DNA of 25,801 nucleotides from a virus (taxonomy: Duplodnaviria; Heunggongvirae; Uroviricota; Caudoviricetes). The position numbers were made by a program, and so were the translations under genes. The notes beneath the pieces are model-generated. The model saw only the letters and a program-made list of their open reading frames with translations. It did no database searches and was not told where the DNA came from. How positions within the stretch are numbered: position 1 is the stretch's first letter; each line of letters opens with the position of its first letter. The stretch is taken from IMG/VR virus record IMGVR_UViG_2693429554_000019. One strand, 5' to 3'. Below are positions 1 through 8,418 of the stretch, one piece after another.

Positions 1-1053
1 TTACGGGGTAATGCCAACCGCTGCCGCCACTTTGTCGCCACTTGGCAGCGTTGCCAGAGGATTGAAACGAAGCGCCGTTTCCAGATGATCCGGTGCCAGA
101 TGTGCGTAACGCATAGTCATTTTTATATCGTGGTGTCCGAGAATTTTTTGTAAGGCCAGAATGTTTCCACCCGACATCATGAAGTGCGCCGCAAACGTAT
201 GGCGCAGAACGTGTGTGAGTTGACCGCGAGGGAGCACGATAGACGTTTTTTCCATCACGGATAAAAATTGAAAATAACAGTCTGTGAAGAAATTGAACCC
301 ATCAAGCGCCATGATCTCTTCGTAAAGCTCTTTACTGATAGGGATGCTTCTGTTTTTCTTCCCCTTCGTTCTTACAAAGGTAATTCGGTATTTGGTCACC
401 TGTGAGCGGGTAAGATTTACGGCTTCACGCCAGCGTGCGCCAGTGCTTAAGCATATCTTAACTACCAGTGCCAGAATTGGGTCCTGACGTTTACAATCAG
501 CCAGCAATTCAACAATCTGCTCATGGGTAAGCCATGCCATCTCTTTTTCTGCGATGGTGAATTTTCGCATGTTCTCCAGTGGGTTCGGATACGACCATTC
601 GCCCAGGCGGGATAGTTCGCTAAAAACACTACTAAGATAGCTTTGCTCCAGGTTAATAGTGACTGGGCTTGCTCCTTTTTTCCATTTCTCGCTGAAGTAG
701 ATCTCACCCGTCAGGCGTTTATCTCGATAGTGGGCAAACATTTTAGATGTGAGATCGGTTGCAAGGGGATTGCCCAGAGCGTCAACCATCAACAGCAATT
801 TGTCATAGACATGCTGCCCAGCGGTTAGAGATTTACCATGTAGTTTGAACCATAGCTCAACTACGTCTTTCAGTGTTCGACGATCCACTGATTCACCCAG
901 CCAGGGCTTTGCTTCGGTTTCTTCCATCGTGTGGCGCTCAAAAGCCAGAGCTTCGCCTTTGGTGGCGAATTGTTTACGCACACGACGCCCACTACGTCCG
1001 GCGGGGTAACATTCGCAAAGCCATTTCCCGGTGGTGAGTTTTCGTACTGCCAT
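1..1053 (-). CDS. int: Tyrosine integrase (P2/186-type), about 350 aa
   Basis: C-terminal tyrosine-recombinase motifs LTHVLRHTFAAH and LGHHDIKMTMRYAHL (catalytic Tyr). Stop codon occupies bases 1-3. ATG at 1051-1053 is preceded by GGAGGG; the protein then begins MAVRKLTTGKW, typical of P2-family integrases. The track ORF extends to 1209 but that extension is unlikely to be translated. Confidence 0.9.
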   Translation of the reverse strand: MAVRKLTTGKWLCECYPAGRSGRRVRKQFATKGEALAFERHTMEETEAKPWLGESVDRRTLKDVVELWFKLHGKSLTAGQHVYDKLLLMVDALGNPLATDLTSKMFAHYRDKRLTGEIYFSEKWKKGASPVTINLEQSYLSSVFSELSRLGEWSYPNPLENMRKFTIAEKEMAWLTHEQIVELLADCKRQDPILALVVKICLSTGARWREAVNLTRSQVTKYRITFVRTKGKKNRSIPISKELYEEIMALDGFNFFTDCYFQFLSVMEKTSIVLPRGQLTHVLRHTFAAHFMMSGGNILALQKILGHHDIKMTMRYAHLAPDHLETALRFNPLATLPSGDKVAAAVGITP

Positions 1054-1241
1054 AAAAAATGCCCTCCAGTAGAGAGCATTTTTACTGTATGTATAACCAG
1101 TGTCAATGTATGAAATCCTACGACCATACATCTCACTGAAGCCATAATGAAGTTGGCTATTCTTTTTGCTATGTGAGCATGTAACTTTTGCGGTTAACCT
1201 GCGGCTCATTTTTATTTTAGACGCAGATATAAAAGCAAAAG

Positions 1242-1433
1242 TTATCGTGAGTTTTTAGTACAGATTTTTTTGGATTTACTAATAGTTCCATCATTGCAAA
1301 CGAATTTGCCATCTGAGGTACAGTGAGAAACACCTCCCTTTTTCCCTGAGCAGGGATAATTTCTAGCATAGGTAGTTAGTGGGTTTAATAACAAAGAACA
1401 TGACAAAACCACAAAAAATACCTTACCAAGCAT
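1242..1433 (-). CDS. Small (63 aa) cysteine-rich protein with N-terminal signal-peptide-like segment; candidate moron
   Basis: ATG at 1431-1433 sits 15 nt after the repressor stop with GGGAGG between them. N-terminus [23 protein letters not shown] is hydrophobic; the remaining 40 aa carry 4 Cys and many Lys. Lower GC than neighbours. Confidence 0.5.
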
Positions 1434-1448
1434 AGTTTCCTCCCGGTA

Positions 1449-2105
1449 CTATTTAACATACTTGACTGTTAAACTTATAATTTTACCAATTATTTCAATG
1501 TCTTCTATCTTGCATTCGAAGGCTCTGTTTCCACCCTCGACGAAGATTCTTCCACCGGGTAAACGAGTAATGTCACGGATCGTTATTTCGCCATCAATAC
1601 TTATTACCCATTTACCATCACGTATATCATCAAATTCTTTATCACAAATAAATTCAGAATTGTTATCTGTGATGACAAAAGGTTTTTTAAACGTAGAGGG
1701 TAGAAATTCCTTATCAAAAATATAAAAACCGTCTTTCTGCAATGCTCCATCAGACAATAAATATTTTTCTACTTCTATAGTATTTGTATTTGCTGATGCT
1801 TGCTTTGAACCATGCCCTGTTGTTAGCCAATTAAGCGAGGTGCCCGTTTCAAGGGCGCACTGGATTACCCAATCTGCTGGAAAAATATCACGCATATAGC
1901 GCGTTGCCATGGTGCTCTTAGAAACACCTAAATGATCACAGAGAGCCTGACGGGTACCGAACCCATATGCTTCAACTAAACGTTCTATGGCTTTCTTACC
2001 GCCGCTATTGAAATCCACAAGTCCTCCAAAGAAATCCAAAATCCGTTGACAGATTCCAAAAGCGATCTTAAAGTTGAACCAGAAGTGTTCTTTTGGAGCC
2101 TTCAC
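1449..2105 (-). CDS. cI: CI-type prophage repressor (186 CI-like: N-terminal HTH, C-terminal oligomerisation domain)
   Basis: Segment LVEAYGFGTRQALCDHLGVSKSTMATRYMRDIFPADWVIQCALETGTSLNWLTTG matches the CI-repressor HTH pattern. Divergent from the Apl/CII operon and directly upstream of int, as in 186. The track start is GTG (2103-2105); the true start may be an internal GTG preceded by GGAGGA, about 28 codons downstream. Confidence 0.75.
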   Translation of the reverse strand: MKAPKEHFWFNFKIAFGICQRILDFFGGLVDFNSGGKKAIERLVEAYGFGTRQALCDHLGVSKSTMATRYMRDIFPADWVIQCALETGTSLNWLTTGHGSKQASANTNTIEVEKYLLSDGALQKDGFYIFDKEFLPSTFKKPFVITDNNSEFICDKEFDDIRDGKWVISIDGEITIRDITRLPGGRIFVEGGNRAFECKIEDIEIIGKIISLTVKYVK

Positions 2106-4232: not shown

Positions 4233-5086
4233 GCACCATCCTGAAATGGGCGGGAAATAAAACCGCCGTAATGTCCGAACTGAAAAAACATCTTCCAGCT
4301 GGCCCGCGACTGGTTGAACCTTTCGCGGGTTCCTGTGCTGTGATGATGGAGACGGATTATCCCAGCTATCTGGTTGCGGATATTAATCCTGATTTAATCA
4401 ACCTCTATAAAAAGGTTGCCGCTGATTGTGAATCGTTTATATCTCGCGCCAGAGTTTTATTTAAGGAAGCAAACAGGGAGGTGGCTTATTACAACATAAG
4501 GCAGGAGTTTAATTACTCAACTGAAATTACTGATTTCATGAAAGCGGTATATTTCCTGTATCTCAATCGTCACGGTTACCGTGGGTTATGTCGCTATAAC
4601 AAGAGCGGGCATTTCAACATTCCCTACGGTAATTATAAAAATCCGTATTTCCCTGAAAAAGAAATTCGCGCATTTGCAGAGAAAGCCCAACGAGCAACGT
4701 TTATCTGCGCCAGCTTTGATGAAACGCTGGCGATGTTGAAGGCGGGGGATGTGGTGTATTGCGATCCGCCGTATGACGGTACGTTTTCCAGCTATCACAC
4801 TGATGGTTTCACTGAAGATGACCAGTATCACCTGGCATCCGTTCTTGAACATCGGTCATCAGAAGGACATCCGGTCATTGTTTCTAACAGTGACACATCC
4901 CTGATCCGTTCGCTGTATCGCAATTTTACTCACCACTACATCAAGGCAAAACGCAGCATCGGCGTAGCAGCTGGTGAGAGTAAATCTGCAACAGAAATCA
5001 TCGCTGTTTCTGGGGCGCGCTGCTGGGTGGGATTTGATCCTTCGCGTGGCGTGGATAGTTCTGCCGTGTACGGAGTGCGTGCATGA
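4229..5086 (+). CDS. dam: Orphan DNA adenine methyltransferase (Dam-like)
   Basis: Motif [10 protein letters not shown] and motif IV DPPY ([12 protein letters not shown]); C-terminal AKRSIG resembles the E. coli Dam C-terminus. No restriction-enzyme partner nearby. GGAGG 8 nt upstream of ATG 4229. Stop overlaps the A start (ATGA). Confidence 0.85.
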
Positions 5087-7497
5087 GCCATGCTGATATG
5101 AACAACTGCAGCGGCTTTAACGAGGCCGCCGCAGCATTCTCATGGAACAGCCCGAAAAAGGCGATTAACCCTTATCTGGACCCGGCGGAAGTTGCGCCGG
5201 TTTCTGCGCTTTCAAACCTGATCACTCTGTACGCTGCCGATAACAAGCAGGAACAACTGCGCCGCGAGGCACTGAGTGATCAGGTCTGGGAGCGTTATTT
5301 CTTTAATGAATCCCGTGATCCTGTCCAGCGCGAAATGGAGCAGGATAAGCTCATTAGCCGGGCAAAGCTGGTGCATGAGCAGCAGCGTTTTAATCCGGAC
5401 ATGGTCATACTGGCGGACGTTAACGCCCAGCCTTCCCATATCAGCAAGCCGCTGATGCAACGTATTGAATACTTCAGCAGCCTGGGCAGGCCAAAGGCTT
5501 ATTCCCGCTATTTGCGTGAGACGATTAAACCATGTCTGGAACGACTGGAGCATGTACGCGACAGCCAGCTATCTGCATCTTTTCGTTTTATGGCAAGCCA
5601 TGAAGGGCTGGACGGCCTGCTGATCTTGCCTGAAATGAGTCAGGATCAGGTGAAGCGCCTGTCTACCCTTGTTGCCGCGCATATGAGCATGTGCCTTGAT
5701 GCAGCTTGTGGTGATTTGTATGCCACCGATGACGTTAAGCCAGAAGAAATCCGCAAGACATGGGAAAGGGTGGCGGCGGAAACCCTGCGTCTGGATGTCA
5801 TCCCTCCTGCGTTTGAGCAACTCCGCCGGAAAAGAAACCGCCGTAAACCCGTACCCTATGAACTCATTCCGGGTTCGCTGGCGCGTATGTTGTGCGCCGA
5901 CTGGTGGTATCGGAAATTATGGAAGATGCGTTGCGAATGGCGGGAAGAGCAGTTGCGTGCTGTTTGCCTGGTCAGCAAAAAAGCATCTCCCTATGTCAGC
6001 TATGAAGCCGTGATGCATAAACGTGAGCAGCGCCGTAAGTCGCTGGAGTTTTTCCGTTCTCATGAACTGGTGAACGAAGACGGCGACACGCTGGATATGG
6101 AGGACGTGGTAAACGCCAGTAGTAGCAACCCGGCGCATCGCCGCAATGAGATGATGGCATGTGTTAAAGGTCTGGAGCTTATCGCGGAAATGCGCGGTGA
6201 CTGCGCCGTTTTCTACACCATCACCTGTCCGTCACGTTTCCATTCCACGCTAAATAACGGCAGGCCCAACCCGACTTGGACAAATGCGACGGTAAGACAA
6301 AGCAGTGATTATCTGGTCGGCATGTTTGCTGCATTTCGTAAGGCGATGTACAAAGCCGGATTGCGCTGGTATGGCGTGCGGGTGGCTGAGCCGCATCATG
6401 ACGGTACAGTTCACTGGCACCTGTTGTGTTTTATGCGCAAAAAAGATCGCCGCGCCATTACTGCTTTGTTGCGTAAGTTTGCCATTCGTGAAGACCGCGA
6501 GGAGCTGGGTAATAACACAGGACCACGCTTTAAGTCTGAGCTGATAAACCCGCGCAAAGGTACACCAACAAGCTACATCGCGAAATACATCAGTAAGAAC
6601 ATTGACGGGCGTGGTCTGGCTGGCGAGATCAGCAAGGAAACGGGTAAATCTCTGCGTGATAACGCTGAATACGTTAATGCCTGGGCGTCTCTGCATCGTG
6701 TTCAGCAATTCCGCTTCTTTGGCATTCCGGGGCGTCAGGCTTACCGTGAACTGCGATTGCTGGCTGGTCAGGCGGCAAGGCAACAGGGTGACAAAAAAGC
6801 AGGTGCGCCGGTACTGGATAACCCGCGCCTTGATGCCATTCTGGCTGCAGCTGATGCTGGTTGCTTTGCCACCTACATCATGAAGCAGGGCGGCGTACTG
6901 GTTCCCCGTAAATATCACCTCATCAGAACCGCTTATGAAATCAACGAAGAGCCGACCGCCTATGGCGATCACGGTATTCGTATTTATGGCATCTGGTCAC
7001 CCATTGCAGAGGGCAAGATCTGCACTCATGCAGTGAAGTGGAAAATGGTCCGTAAAGCCGTTGACGTTCAGGAGGCGGCAGCCGACCAGGGCGCTTGCGC
7101 CCCTTGGACTCGTGGCAATAACTGTCCCCTTGCTGAAAATTTGCCCCAACAAGGGAAAGACAAATCAGCTGATGGGGATACCAGAACGGATATCACCCGT
7201 ATGAATGACAAGGAGTTGCACGATTACCTGCACAGTATGAGCAAAAAAGAGCGCCGGGAACTGACAGCAAGATTACGCCTGGTGAAACCGAAACGGCGTA
7301 AAGACTACAAACAGCGAATTACAGACCATCAGCGACAGCAGCTTGTCTATGAACTGAAGTCCAGAGGATTTGACGGCAGCGAGAAAGAGGTCGATTTACT
7401 CCTTCGCGGTGGCAGTATTCCGTCAGGAGCAGGCCTGCGTATCTTCTATCGGAACCAGCGTTTGCAGGAAGATGATAAGTGGCGGGATCTGTATTAA
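5083..7497 (+). CDS. A: Replication initiator A (rolling-circle HUH endonuclease, P2/186 gpA family)
   Basis: 804 aa. HUH motif in [15 protein letters not shown] and paired catalytic tyrosines in [11 protein letters not shown]. Position after the early operon matches P2/186. Confidence 0.9.
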
Positions 7498-7589
7498 TTA
7501 CGCGGGTTAACAATTCGTGCTCTTAATAATACCAGGCATATCAGGCTGATGAACGTAAAAAAACGTTTTACATCAGTAAGATTATTATA

Positions 7590-7609
7590 TACTGTAAATA
7601 TAAACAGTG
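7590..7609. promoter_or_regulatory. LexA (SOS) box, CTGT-N8-ACAG
   Basis: TACTGTAAATATAAACAGTG read directly from the sequence: CTGT at 7592-7595, AT-rich 8-nt spacer, ACAG at 7604-7607. Lies 42-61 nt upstream of the ATG at 7651 in an AT-rich promoter-like stretch. Confidence 0.6.
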
Positions 7610-7650
7610 GTTATACATACAGTATTTCTTGTGGTGTCATAGGAGGAAAG

Positions 7651-7839
7651 ATGCAGGACTATTTTTTGGAGTCTTTGAAGCTCCAGCGCATTGATTTTTT
7701 TCTTAAGCTTGTAGCGGCTAGTGAGTGTAGTGATGAAGAGAAGGGGCTGGCTCTGCAGTGGGTTTCTGAACTAACAGATGAACTCATGGCAAAAATCAGA
7801 ACCCACGAATACAACCGCTCAATGGATGTCATCAGCTGA
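7651..7839 (+). CDS. Small SOS-regulated protein (62 aa), possibly Tum-like antirepressor moiety
   Basis: ATG at 7651 preceded by AGGAGGAAAG; downstream of the LexA box. The track ORF from 7549 is an untranslated N-terminal extension. Function inferred only from context with the DinI-like gene. Confidence 0.45.
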   Translation: MQDYFLESLKLQRIDFFLKLVAASECSDEEKGLALQWVSELTDELMAKIRTHEYNRSMDVIS

Positions 7840-7849
7840 GGTGACTTTT

Positions 7850-8083
7850 ATGCGCATTGAAATAATGATCGATAAAGAGCAGAAGATTAGCCAGTCTATC
7901 CTGGACGCCCTTGAATCCGAGCTTTACCGCAATCTGCGCCCCCTGTATCCCAAAACGGTAATTCGCATCCGCAAAGGTAGCTCTAACGGTGTGGAACTGA
8001 CAGGACTGCAACTGGACGAAGAAAGAAAACAAGTGATGAAAATTATGCAGAAGGTGTGGGAAGACGACAGCTGGCTGCATTAA
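7850..8083 (+). CDS. DinI-family protein (77 aa)
   Basis: MRIEIMIDKE...ILDALESEL...KVWEDDSWLH parallels E. coli DinI (MRIEVTIAK...IDALAGEL...ETWESADDWF). GAGGTG 6 nt upstream of ATG 7850. Co-directional with the preceding ORF, so probably under the same LexA box. Confidence 0.7.
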   Translation: MRIEIMIDKEQKISQSILDALESELYRNLRPLYPKTVIRIRKGSSNGVELTGLQLDEERKQVMKIMQKVWEDDSWLH

Positions 8084-8099
8084 GAAACGTTGCCCCAAG

Positions 8100-8418
8100 A
8101 GAATTTATTCTGATGGAGGTTAGTTTGGACAACGAGTGAAATAAGGTGGGCGGTCATTTTGATAAATGATCGTCCGCTTTGTGCCAGATATAGTCATTCG
8201 AACCCTGAGAGTTACACTTTTAAGTGATTCAGGGTATGCGCTTACTGGTTACGAATATTGTGCCAGAATCATGTGATTTGATGATTGCCGCTTTGCTTTC
8301 GAGCCAGTAAGTGCTCCACGTTCGCTAACGAATACTCAGGGCATGCAGAAAACTGCTGACTATATTTCTTTCGAAGAACGTGGAATGCATACCAATCCCC
8401 GATAAAAAGGAGTTGGTG
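8100..8418 (+). ncRNA. Candidate IS110-type non-coding (bridge-like) RNA in the left end
   Basis: About 320 nt non-coding region directly 5' of the transposase. Imperfect inverted repeat TCCACGTTCG (8315-8324) / CGAAGAACGTGGA (8372-8384). Hypothesis only. Confidence 0.2.

Follow-up and report, generated by a model that had tools for sequence, protein, structure and literature searches.

Several described systems resemble, in part, the locus analyzed here. The gene ydcA (b1419) of Escherichia coli K-12, which lies between rydC and hokB, encodes a signal peptide and, after it, a domain of the form PCSG(K/S)KGG(V/I)SHC...GKFVCNDG(T/S)IS.SKK.C with four invariant cysteines. A ydcA deletion strain of E. 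coli W was sensitive to 3-hydroxypropionate at 300 mM (PMC7642389), and a YdcI-dependent induction at pH 5 has been reported (as cited in PMC7642389). In Vibrio cholerae phage K139, the periplasmic protein Glo is involved in phage exclusion (PMC3952083); the GenBank record of this phage gives the gene order cI-orf2-glo-int in the PL operon and describes Glo as a 'periplasmic protein; involved in phage exclusion'. The cI-int interval of K139-like Vibrio phages has already been described as a defence hotspot (PMC9122126), and a minor hotspot is present between integrase and primase in P2-like prophages (PMC13586616). Finally, the Dis2 protein of Legionella is located below the outer membrane, where it touches the lipoproteins DotC, DotD, and DotK (PMC8486379, PMC12716638).

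We analyzed a 25,801-nt stretch of DNA (the window) from a virus of the Caudoviricetes (IMG/VR record IMGVR_UViG_2693429554_000019), in which a small gene lies between a 186-type cI repressor gene and an integrase gene (Table 1). The product of this gene presents the signal peptide and the four-cysteine domain of K-12 YdcA, with which it aligns across the entire mature domain (about 70% identity), but the K-12 gene is chromosomal whereas the window gene is prophage-borne and tied to the repressor operon. Like glo, the window gene occupies the cI-int slot of a lysogenic operon, and both phages are related to P2 (Peduoviridae). Glo is a soluble periplasmic protein with an N-terminal signal peptide; for the window protein, a signal peptide and a periplasmic location are predicted. 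In contrast, Glo is a helical-looking protein of 137 aa with two cysteines in its mature part, and orf2 separates its gene from cI. Homology to Glo was rejected (hhalign probability 0.1; E = 0.48). As for lambda rexAB and other morons, the window gene is dispensable cargo of a lysogen-active operon, absent from phage 186 and from the related prophage L009, and its base composition differs from that of the phage backbone. However, it does not possess the promoter or terminator of its own that a classic moron has, and it follows cI after only 15 nt. RexA and RexB are unrelated to the window protein, and they are cytoplasmic or inner-membrane proteins whereas the window protein is predicted to be periplasmic.

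The gene, its family and its predicted product

Table 1. Features of the repressor-integrase region of the window.
Feature	Position	Strand	Basis or remark
P2/186-type tyrosine integrase (int)	1..1053	-	PF24624 3.2e-32, PF00589 1.4e-21, RefSeq CDS
AT-rich 188-nt spacer, ydcA to int	1054..1241	.	KAP-NTPase gene instead in sister prophages
Promoter-like TTGACA-17-AAAAAT	1078..1106	-	About 25-30 nt upstream of int ATG
LexA-box-like palindrome ACTGGTTATACATACAGT	1084-1101	-	Enclosed in promoter-like element; none expected by chance
Terminator-like hairpin TTGCGGTTAACCTGCGG + T-run	1188..1214	+	T-run on + strand only
Prophage YdcA-family CDS (ydcA)	1242..1433	-	63 aa; ATG start 1433-1431, TAA stop 1242-1244
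Mature 40-aa domain	1245..1364	-	4 invariant Cys, pI 9.7
Predicted signal peptide, aa 1-23	1365..1433	-	Hydropathy, -3/-1 residues, family alignment
Shine-Dalgarno GGGAGG	1439..1444	-	Within 15-nt cI-ydcA gap, 5 nt before ATG
cI TAG stop	1449-1451	-	15 nt from ydcA ATG
186-type CI repressor (cI)	1449..2018	-	PF07022 3.3e-31, PF16452 4e-29, RefSeq coordinates

The coordinates confirm the short ORF behind the repressor, its distance from the cI stop codon, and its ribosome site, as proposed by the initial annotation. That annotation did not name the YdcA family, under which the gene is already annotated in RefSeq: WP_000900883.1, a 'YdcA family protein', occupies the same position. The window protein scored 115.8 bits against the NCBIfam model NF007463, above the curated cutoff of 93, and it matched PHROG 6000, a group without assigned function, over 56 of 56 profile positions (E = 1.9e-34). 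The Pfam domain PF27300 (YdcA) is precomputed for the 98%-identical cluster representative of the protein and for all its close homologues. Our local copy of Pfam contains no YdcA model and returned only a sub-threshold match to GULLO2; the family was therefore recovered through NCBIfam, PHROGs, and the precomputed PF27300. By these profile matches, the ORF is a real gene that belongs to a known family, as a prophage-borne paralogue of E. coli YdcA. It scored 68.5 bits against the K-12 YdcA equivalog NF007462, below the cutoff of 118, and by this measure it is a member of a paralogous sub-family and not the orthologue of the K-12 chromosomal gene. Sequence and family being already catalogued, the gene is not a new kind of object.

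The family is widespread. A large database search retrieved 64 relatives, nearly all with a precomputed PF27300 domain, and an exhaustive HMM search of 1.84 billion representatives yielded 459 clusters at 50% identity, some of whose members consist of two or three tandem repeats of the domain (up to 226 aa). The exact sequence of the window protein is present on more than 1000 contigs. The ORF and the spacer were matched in 696 of 5426 complete E. coli genomes, including 590 genomes matched over at least 80% of the length. The gene is thus present in about 11-13% of the complete genomes of E. coli, or one in eight or nine. BL21(DE3), a workhorse strain, and other B strains carry an allele with 94% identity, and Klebsiella, Yersinia, Hafnia, and Haemophilus have the gene in related prophages. 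No family of PADLOC-DB 2.0 matched the window ORF, an Rfam scan of the whole window returned no match, and a literature search on the family name and accessions found nothing functional. The UniRef name 'conjugal transfer protein' was set aside as an automatic name, since there is no type IV secretion system (T4SS) context here, although it may echo the link to Dis2 described below. The genes named 'ydcA' in plasmid pS88, B. subtilis, and gonococcus are unrelated and share only the name.

The predicted signal peptide begins with a short n-region (MLGK), which is followed by a hydrophobic h-region and a c-region (NPLTTYA) with Thr at position -3 and Ala at position -1; from these features we infer a cut by signal peptidase I after A23. 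The alignment of 23 family members showed an N-terminal segment that is hydrophobic but unconserved and an Ala that is invariant just before the domain. The invariant positions of the mature part are P, C, S, K, G, G, C, F, C, D, G, S, S, K, and C, and all invariant columns of the family are found in the window protein, including the four Cys. The family domain measures about 35 aa and is marked by the motifs PCSGKKGG and F.C.DG..S.SK..C. A variable hydrophobic leader, an invariant Ala, and a frozen domain together read as a cleaved Sec signal peptide. Hydropathy, the -3/-1 residues, and the family alignment thus agree with the signal-peptide-like N-terminus proposed initially. The Lys-rich mature part with four Cys was borne out as well: the 40-aa peptide contains 7 Lys, 2 Arg, 2 Asp, and 4 Cys, with a pI of 9.7 and a charge of +6.8.

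A membrane location had been offered as an alternative. The protein contains a fifth Cys (C12), which falls within the signal peptide and is missing in P0019, P0023, P0024, and other members. A lipoprotein processed by signal peptidase II was rejected, as V-L-S-C12 is no canonical lipobox ([LVI][ASTVI][GAS]C; here with Leu at -2) and C12 is unconserved. A membrane or lipoprotein location is unlikely on these grounds, and the predicted signal peptide with its A-x-A-type site, as read from the sequence and the family alignment, would be compatible with a soluble periplasmic location. Two ORFs in overlapping frames, at 1217-1369 on the minus strand and 1166-1258 on the plus strand, found no support. 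The initial annotation also described the gene as lower in GC-content than its neighbors. The GC-content of the ORF (35.4%) is indeed lower than that of int (48.5%) and of the window (51.0%), but this does not hold relative to cI, which is also low (38.5%), and the downstream spacer has a GC-content of 36.7%. The low-GC block consists of cI, the ORF, and the spacer together, and not of the ORF alone.

We then analyzed selection on the gene using eight codon-aligned alleles (the window, BL21, JA0266, a second E. coli type, Klebsiella, Hafnia, Yersinia, and Haemophilus HP2). In the mature domain, the window allele differs from that of BL21 by nine synonymous changes and one non-synonymous change, and from that of JA0266 by 12 and three, respectively, with dN/dS ratios of 0.02-0.04 for these two comparisons. 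Between genera, synonymous sites were saturated, while the dN of the mature domain ranged from 0.05 to 0.13, and from 0.24 to 0.31 relative to HP2. For comparison, dN was 0.22-0.77 for the adjacent cI; for the signal peptide it was 0.65-1.26, against 0.03-0.13 for the mature part. These results show that the mature domain is under strong purifying selection and that the signal peptide drifts freely. Together with the curated HMM matches, they uphold the initial view of a real gene for a Cys-rich mini-protein whose export is predicted.

Coupling to the repressor and cargo of the cI-int slot

The cI gene is the first cistron of its operon; its open frame reaches position 2105, and the RefSeq form encodes 189 aa. 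An Apl/Cox-like gene and cII are oriented divergently from cI. In phage 186, cI and int overlap and no gene is found between them, which agrees with the earlier description of ydcA as inserted between repressor and integrase. Wherever it is present in 186/HP-type prophages (Escherichia, Klebsiella, Hafnia, Yersinia, and Haemophilus), ydcA is the first gene after cI, and any further cargo begins 9-13 nt past its stop codon. The gap between cI and ydcA measures 15, 15, 15, 23, 17, 17, and 49 nt in seven alleles and -1 nt in HP2. A Shine-Dalgarno-like sequence was found in six of the seven gapped alleles (equivalents of the window's site being AAGGAG, AAGGAA, and TGGAGG), and none was evident in the 49-nt gap of Yersinia. 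In the Haemophilus phages HP2 and S2, the stop codon of cI and the ATG of a 60-aa YdcA homologue overlap (TAATG); this homologue is unannotated in GenBank, and a gene for a secreted OB-fold protein and then int lie downstream. That ydcA is coupled to the repressor so consistently in several genera, the unannotated copy of HP2 and S2 among them, is new here.

No terminator-like site was found on the minus strand from cI through ydcA to int. The hairpin within the spacer is not followed by a T-run when read on the minus strand; judging by its orientation, it would stop antisense transcripts running through int toward ydcA and cI, and not the cI-ydcA transcript. As a second cistron that follows cI too closely to have a separate promoter, ydcA is naturally expected to be expressed in the lysogen from the cI (pL-type) operon, which is probably polycistronic like pL of 186.

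The content of the slot varies among related elements. YdcA alone is found in the window and in about 590 genomes, as well as in Yersinia. It is accompanied by a KAP-family NTPase in E. coli JA0266, in four other E. coli prophages (L013-L016), and in two Klebsiella prophages (L017-L018), and by an uncharacterised 347-aa protein in Hafnia. Other elements do not encode YdcA in the slot: L009 carries the KAP NTPase alone, phage vB_EcoM-813R9 a PD-Lambda-1-type protein, and Klebsiella phage 4LV2017 an uncharacterised 349-aa protein. Several of these slot variants share the attB site next to rcdA. Where the KAP NTPase gene takes the place of the window's spacer, the gaps are 11-13 nt. The KAP NTPase of the sister prophages matched PADLOC PDC-S20 (1.3e-173), and a 558-aa slot protein matched PADLOC PD-Lambda-1 (3e-120). 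These results show that the cargo of the cI-int slot varies and that, in other elements, it includes anti-phage genes; the residence of ydcA in such a defence hotspot is also new here. The initial annotation held that absence or disruption of the ORF at the same junction in related prophages would speak against it. The gene is absent in L009, but it is intact and under purifying selection where present, and its absence from some relatives thus does not refute a function.

A probable structural relative, genomic contexts and candidate functions

AlphaFold2, run with the 23-sequence alignment, modeled the mature part as a small knot containing a beta-hairpin (pLDDT 84-91). A profile search against all PDB sequences gave a single meaningful match, which was also the top one (E = 4.6e-5): chain AN of 7MUC/7MUD, 124 aa long. 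This chain is Dis2 (Lpg0823), from the type IVB secretion system Dot/Icm of Legionella. With a profile of the mature part only, Dis2 was still the top match but with E = 0.083, as the signal peptide had supplied part of the score of the full profile. Foldseek on the AlphaFold2 model ranked 7mud_AN and 7muc_AN first (probability 0.96-0.97; 38-39% identity over 37-38 columns), and Dis2 is the sole solved structure retrieved by either sequence profile or Foldseek. In addition, a Dis2-like metagenomic protein (P0079) has a precomputed PF27300 domain, and both of its lobes align pairwise to the window mature peptide (4e-5 and 2e-4). Each lobe of Dis2 has the core C..GG(V/I)..C...G..VCN(D/N)G..S, and Dis2 is disulfide-rich, periplasmic, and near the outer membrane. 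The two proteins differ in that Dis2 has two lobes and five disulfides and is a subunit of the T4SS outer-membrane cap, whereas the window protein has one lobe and four Cys, and its gene neighbors cI and int rather than T4SS genes. The probable relationship between YdcA and Dis2, as judged from these alignments, is new here; it provides a structural handle on an orphan family and would revise the notion that the relatives of Dis2 are confined to Legionellales. Other matches were discarded as cysteine and composition noise: those to potato type-II (Pin-II) proteinase inhibitors (E = 0.17-7 with the full profile), which were lost with the mature-only profile, and those to LDL-receptor class A and hepsin.

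We searched for a conserved neighbor of the gene across 80 species-level loci and found no universal partner. In only about 10 of these 80 best loci does a 186-type cI or int gene lie no more than 3 kb away. Next to this cI/int group, the same loci include a group of betaproteobacterial P2-like prophages (Ogr, gpD), in which XRE-type HTH genes lie upstream on the same strand but are adjacent in some loci only. YdcA-family genes were also found within the tail modules of siphophages of Moraxella and Acinetobacter, on plasmids of Acinetobacter and Rhizobium, and among housekeeping genes on other contigs. These contexts (tail modules, plasmids, and chromosomes) mark the YdcA domain as a periplasmic module that is mobile and self-contained, not specific to phages, and repeatedly acquired by temperate ones.

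We consider it rather probable that the window gene encodes a lysogen-expressed, Sec-exported periplasmic mini-protein with two disulfides that acts by binding a component of the envelope. Under this reading, the lysogenic promoter would drive ydcA together with cI, and translation of ydcA would start at a strong ribosome site of its own. Sec would export the product, signal peptidase I would remove the leader after Ala23, and a DsbA-type machinery would then fold the 40-residue, strongly basic mini-domain with its two disulfides. By analogy with Dis2, the domain could serve for binding rather than catalysis, as a module docked on an envelope protein on the periplasmic side of the outer membrane. 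The prophage might in this way alter or occupy an envelope component, such that an incoming phage or other foreign DNA could not pass.

Of the purposes that such a protein could serve, the exclusion of incoming phage or foreign DNA appears the most likely, but we propose it tentatively, as a possibility short of being probable. The location of ydcA in a slot for defence cargo, and of Glo in the same slot of K139, makes the idea of superinfection exclusion reasonable, and YdcA may act in this manner by analogy with Glo. Several observations count against it. Most members of the family are found outside repressor operons, and the chromosomal, tail-module, and plasmid copies fit a general envelope function at least equally well. 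Moreover, no PADLOC model matched the protein, and Glo is non-homologous. Any reading based on Dis2 also has to face the fact that Dis2 itself is dispensable.

It is somewhat less likely, and on the whole doubtful, that ydcA is a conversion gene for host fitness, with the same role in periplasmic stress or the envelope as chromosomal YdcA (e.g., tolerance to acid or organic acids) and no anti-phage role. The identity of the mature domain with K-12 YdcA (about 70%), the 3-hydroxypropionate sensitivity and pH 5 induction of the chromosomal gene (PMC7642389), and the spread of the family in non-phage contexts and on plasmids are all consistent with such a role. However, the phenotype of the chromosomal gene comes from one report, which gives no mechanism, and a second, diverged copy would add little to a chromosomal ydcA that is already present unless it were specialised. 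The two proteins also belong to separate NCBI equivalogs (the K-12 model gives 68.5 bits, where 118 are required). In addition, the gene always lies right behind the repressor, in a slot that is otherwise occupied by defence genes, and this suggests a role centred on the phage.

A broader and clearly unlikely view would make of the YdcA domain a general periplasmic 'plug' on outer-membrane lipoproteins or OmpA-like scaffolds, in the way that the lobes of Dis2 bind DotC, DotD, and DotK. The prophage copies would then be one-domain blockers of superinfection or DNA entry, possibly also directed against conjugation or T4SS traffic, and P2/186/HP-type prophages would repeatedly have placed such a copy behind their repressor. 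If true, this would be the smallest known soluble periplasmic exclusion factor and would provide a first function for both ydcA and Dis2.

A secreted cationic antimicrobial or toxin-like peptide, harming competitors or the host on induction, is very improbable. The small size (4.3 kDa), the charge (+7), and the Cys content do resemble those of defensin-like peptides, and the initial annotation had listed a toxin-like peptide among its suggestions. This suggestion found no support: no immunity gene, dedicated exporter, or lysis partner was found in the eight loci examined, and the family includes single-copy chromosomal genes (such as K-12 ydcA), tandem-repeat proteins, and a structural subunit of a secretion machine. 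A Sec signal alone would deliver the peptide to the periplasm only, and constitutive co-expression with cI would be self-harming for a toxic peptide.

The least credible reading, to which we give almost no weight, is a chance ORF or decaying remnant without a protein product: the ORF is short and lies in a region of 35% GC where such ORFs arise easily, the local Pfam copy gave no match, and rare variant or frameshifted copies exist (e.g., P0008 and P0009, one contig each), but the selection analysis excludes it (dN/dS of 0.02-0.04 with saturated synonymous sites), and the HMM matches above cutoff, the 459 clusters, the intact form on more than 1000 contigs, and the conserved Shine-Dalgarno site all stand against it.

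If the protein were to block phage entry, it would be relevant to phage therapy and to the prediction of host range, and would represent a tiny, easily engineered exclusion factor. If it were a factor of stress tolerance, it would be an ordinary lysogenic-conversion gene. As the natural lysogen BL21(DE3) and the non-lysogen K-12 are both standard laboratory strains, experiments would be simple and cheap.

A LexA-box-like element upstream of int

The spacer between ydcA and int contains a promoter-like element that encloses a LexA-box-like palindrome (Table 1), which suggests that int has an SOS-inducible promoter of its own. With such a separate promoter, int on the one hand and cI-ydcA (with any further cargo) on the other would be separately expressible. 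The int-proximal LexA-box-like element is conserved in the prophages of BL21 and Yersinia, as well as in prophages with other cargo. A near-identical copy of the box is located at 7606-7623, beside a second box, and these paired boxes (7590-7623) lie upstream of a DinI/Tum-like ORF.

Putative regulatory signals upstream of the integrase gene and elsewhere

We identified a promoter-like site, TTGACA-17-AAAAAT, before int, and this site encloses a LexA-box-like palindrome (ACTGGTTATACATACAGT). A near-identical copy (AGTGGTTATACATACAGT) overlaps a second LexA-like box (TACTGTAAATATAAACAGTG) upstream of a DinI/Tum-like ORF; by chance, no LexA-box-like sites are expected in the window. Prophages of BL21 and Yersinia retain the int-proximal box, as do prophages that carry other cargo. 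The conservation of this box across prophages, together with the promoter-like site, suggests that int possesses its own putative SOS-inducible promoter, in contrast to phage 186, whose cI and int genes overlap.

The interval between int and ydcA contains a terminator-like hairpin (TTGCGGTTAACCTGCGG) followed by a T-run. This hairpin is oriented such that it would stop transcripts arriving from the host side (rcdA), which cross int in the antisense direction on their way to ydcA and cI. No T-run follows the hairpin on the minus strand, and the lysogenic transcript (the presumed cI-ydcA transcript) should therefore not be stopped there.

Positions of putative regulatory signals, accessory ORFs and cI-int slot genes
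Feature	Sequence	Position	Strand	Remark
Promoter-like site	Window	1078-1106	-	~25-30 nt 5' of int start codon
Terminator-like hairpin	Window	1188-1214	+	
Second LexA-like box	Window	7590-7609		
Near-identical LexA-box-like copy	Window	7606-7623		
DinI/Tum-like ORF	Window	7778-8083		Downstream of box pair 7590-7623
IS110-family transposase	Window	8380-9657		
ORF	Window	9842-10306	+	
ORF	Window	10485-11210	-	
ORF	Window	11394-12203	-	
ORF	Window	12553-12891	-	
349-aa protein	L004	1851-2900		
PD-Lambda-1-type protein	L005	1291-2967		PADLOC, 3e-120
KAP NTPase	L009	3081-4412		PADLOC candidate PDC-S20, 1.3e-173
347-aa protein	L019	4247-5290		

Cargo genes of the prophage and its relatives

The cI-int slot of 186-like prophages is a defense and cargo hotspot. 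Related loci present a KAP NTPase (sister prophage L009), a PD-Lambda-1-type protein (L005), and slot proteins of 349 aa (L004) and 347 aa (L019), the latter two without a Pfam or PADLOC match. A cI-ydcA-int segment is also present in L027 (JAEWTL010000113.1, 3057 bp), labeled "MAG: Bacillota bacterium". The ydcA product encoded there matches that of the window at 100% identity, and this short contig is almost certainly a piece of an enterobacterial prophage that was binned incorrectly.

The replication-portal interval is the classic accessory hotspot of P2. In the window, this interval spans 7500-13100, with the replication gene (5083-7497) on one side and the portal gene (13128-14156, minus strand) on the other, and contains a DinI-like ORF, an IS110-family transposase and four ORFs that present no Pfam or PADLOC match.

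Repeated and extended forms of the YdcA domain

Dis2 (Lpg0823), the Legionella Dot/Icm T4SS subunit resolved as chain AN in PDB 7MUC/7MUD, has the appearance of a tandemly duplicated YdcA domain; the same observation covers the Dis2-like protein P0079 and P0080. Dis2 has been described as Legionellales-specific and without structural neighbors. Other proteins with two or three repeats were found within the YdcA family (e.g., P0081-P0085). Finally, betaproteobacterial members of ~100-125 aa present a second Cys-rich module at their C-terminus with the motif C(T/A)GPRGG.YC...G.K.Y (P0056, P0058, P0060, P0062 and P0200; loci L068, L075 and L106).
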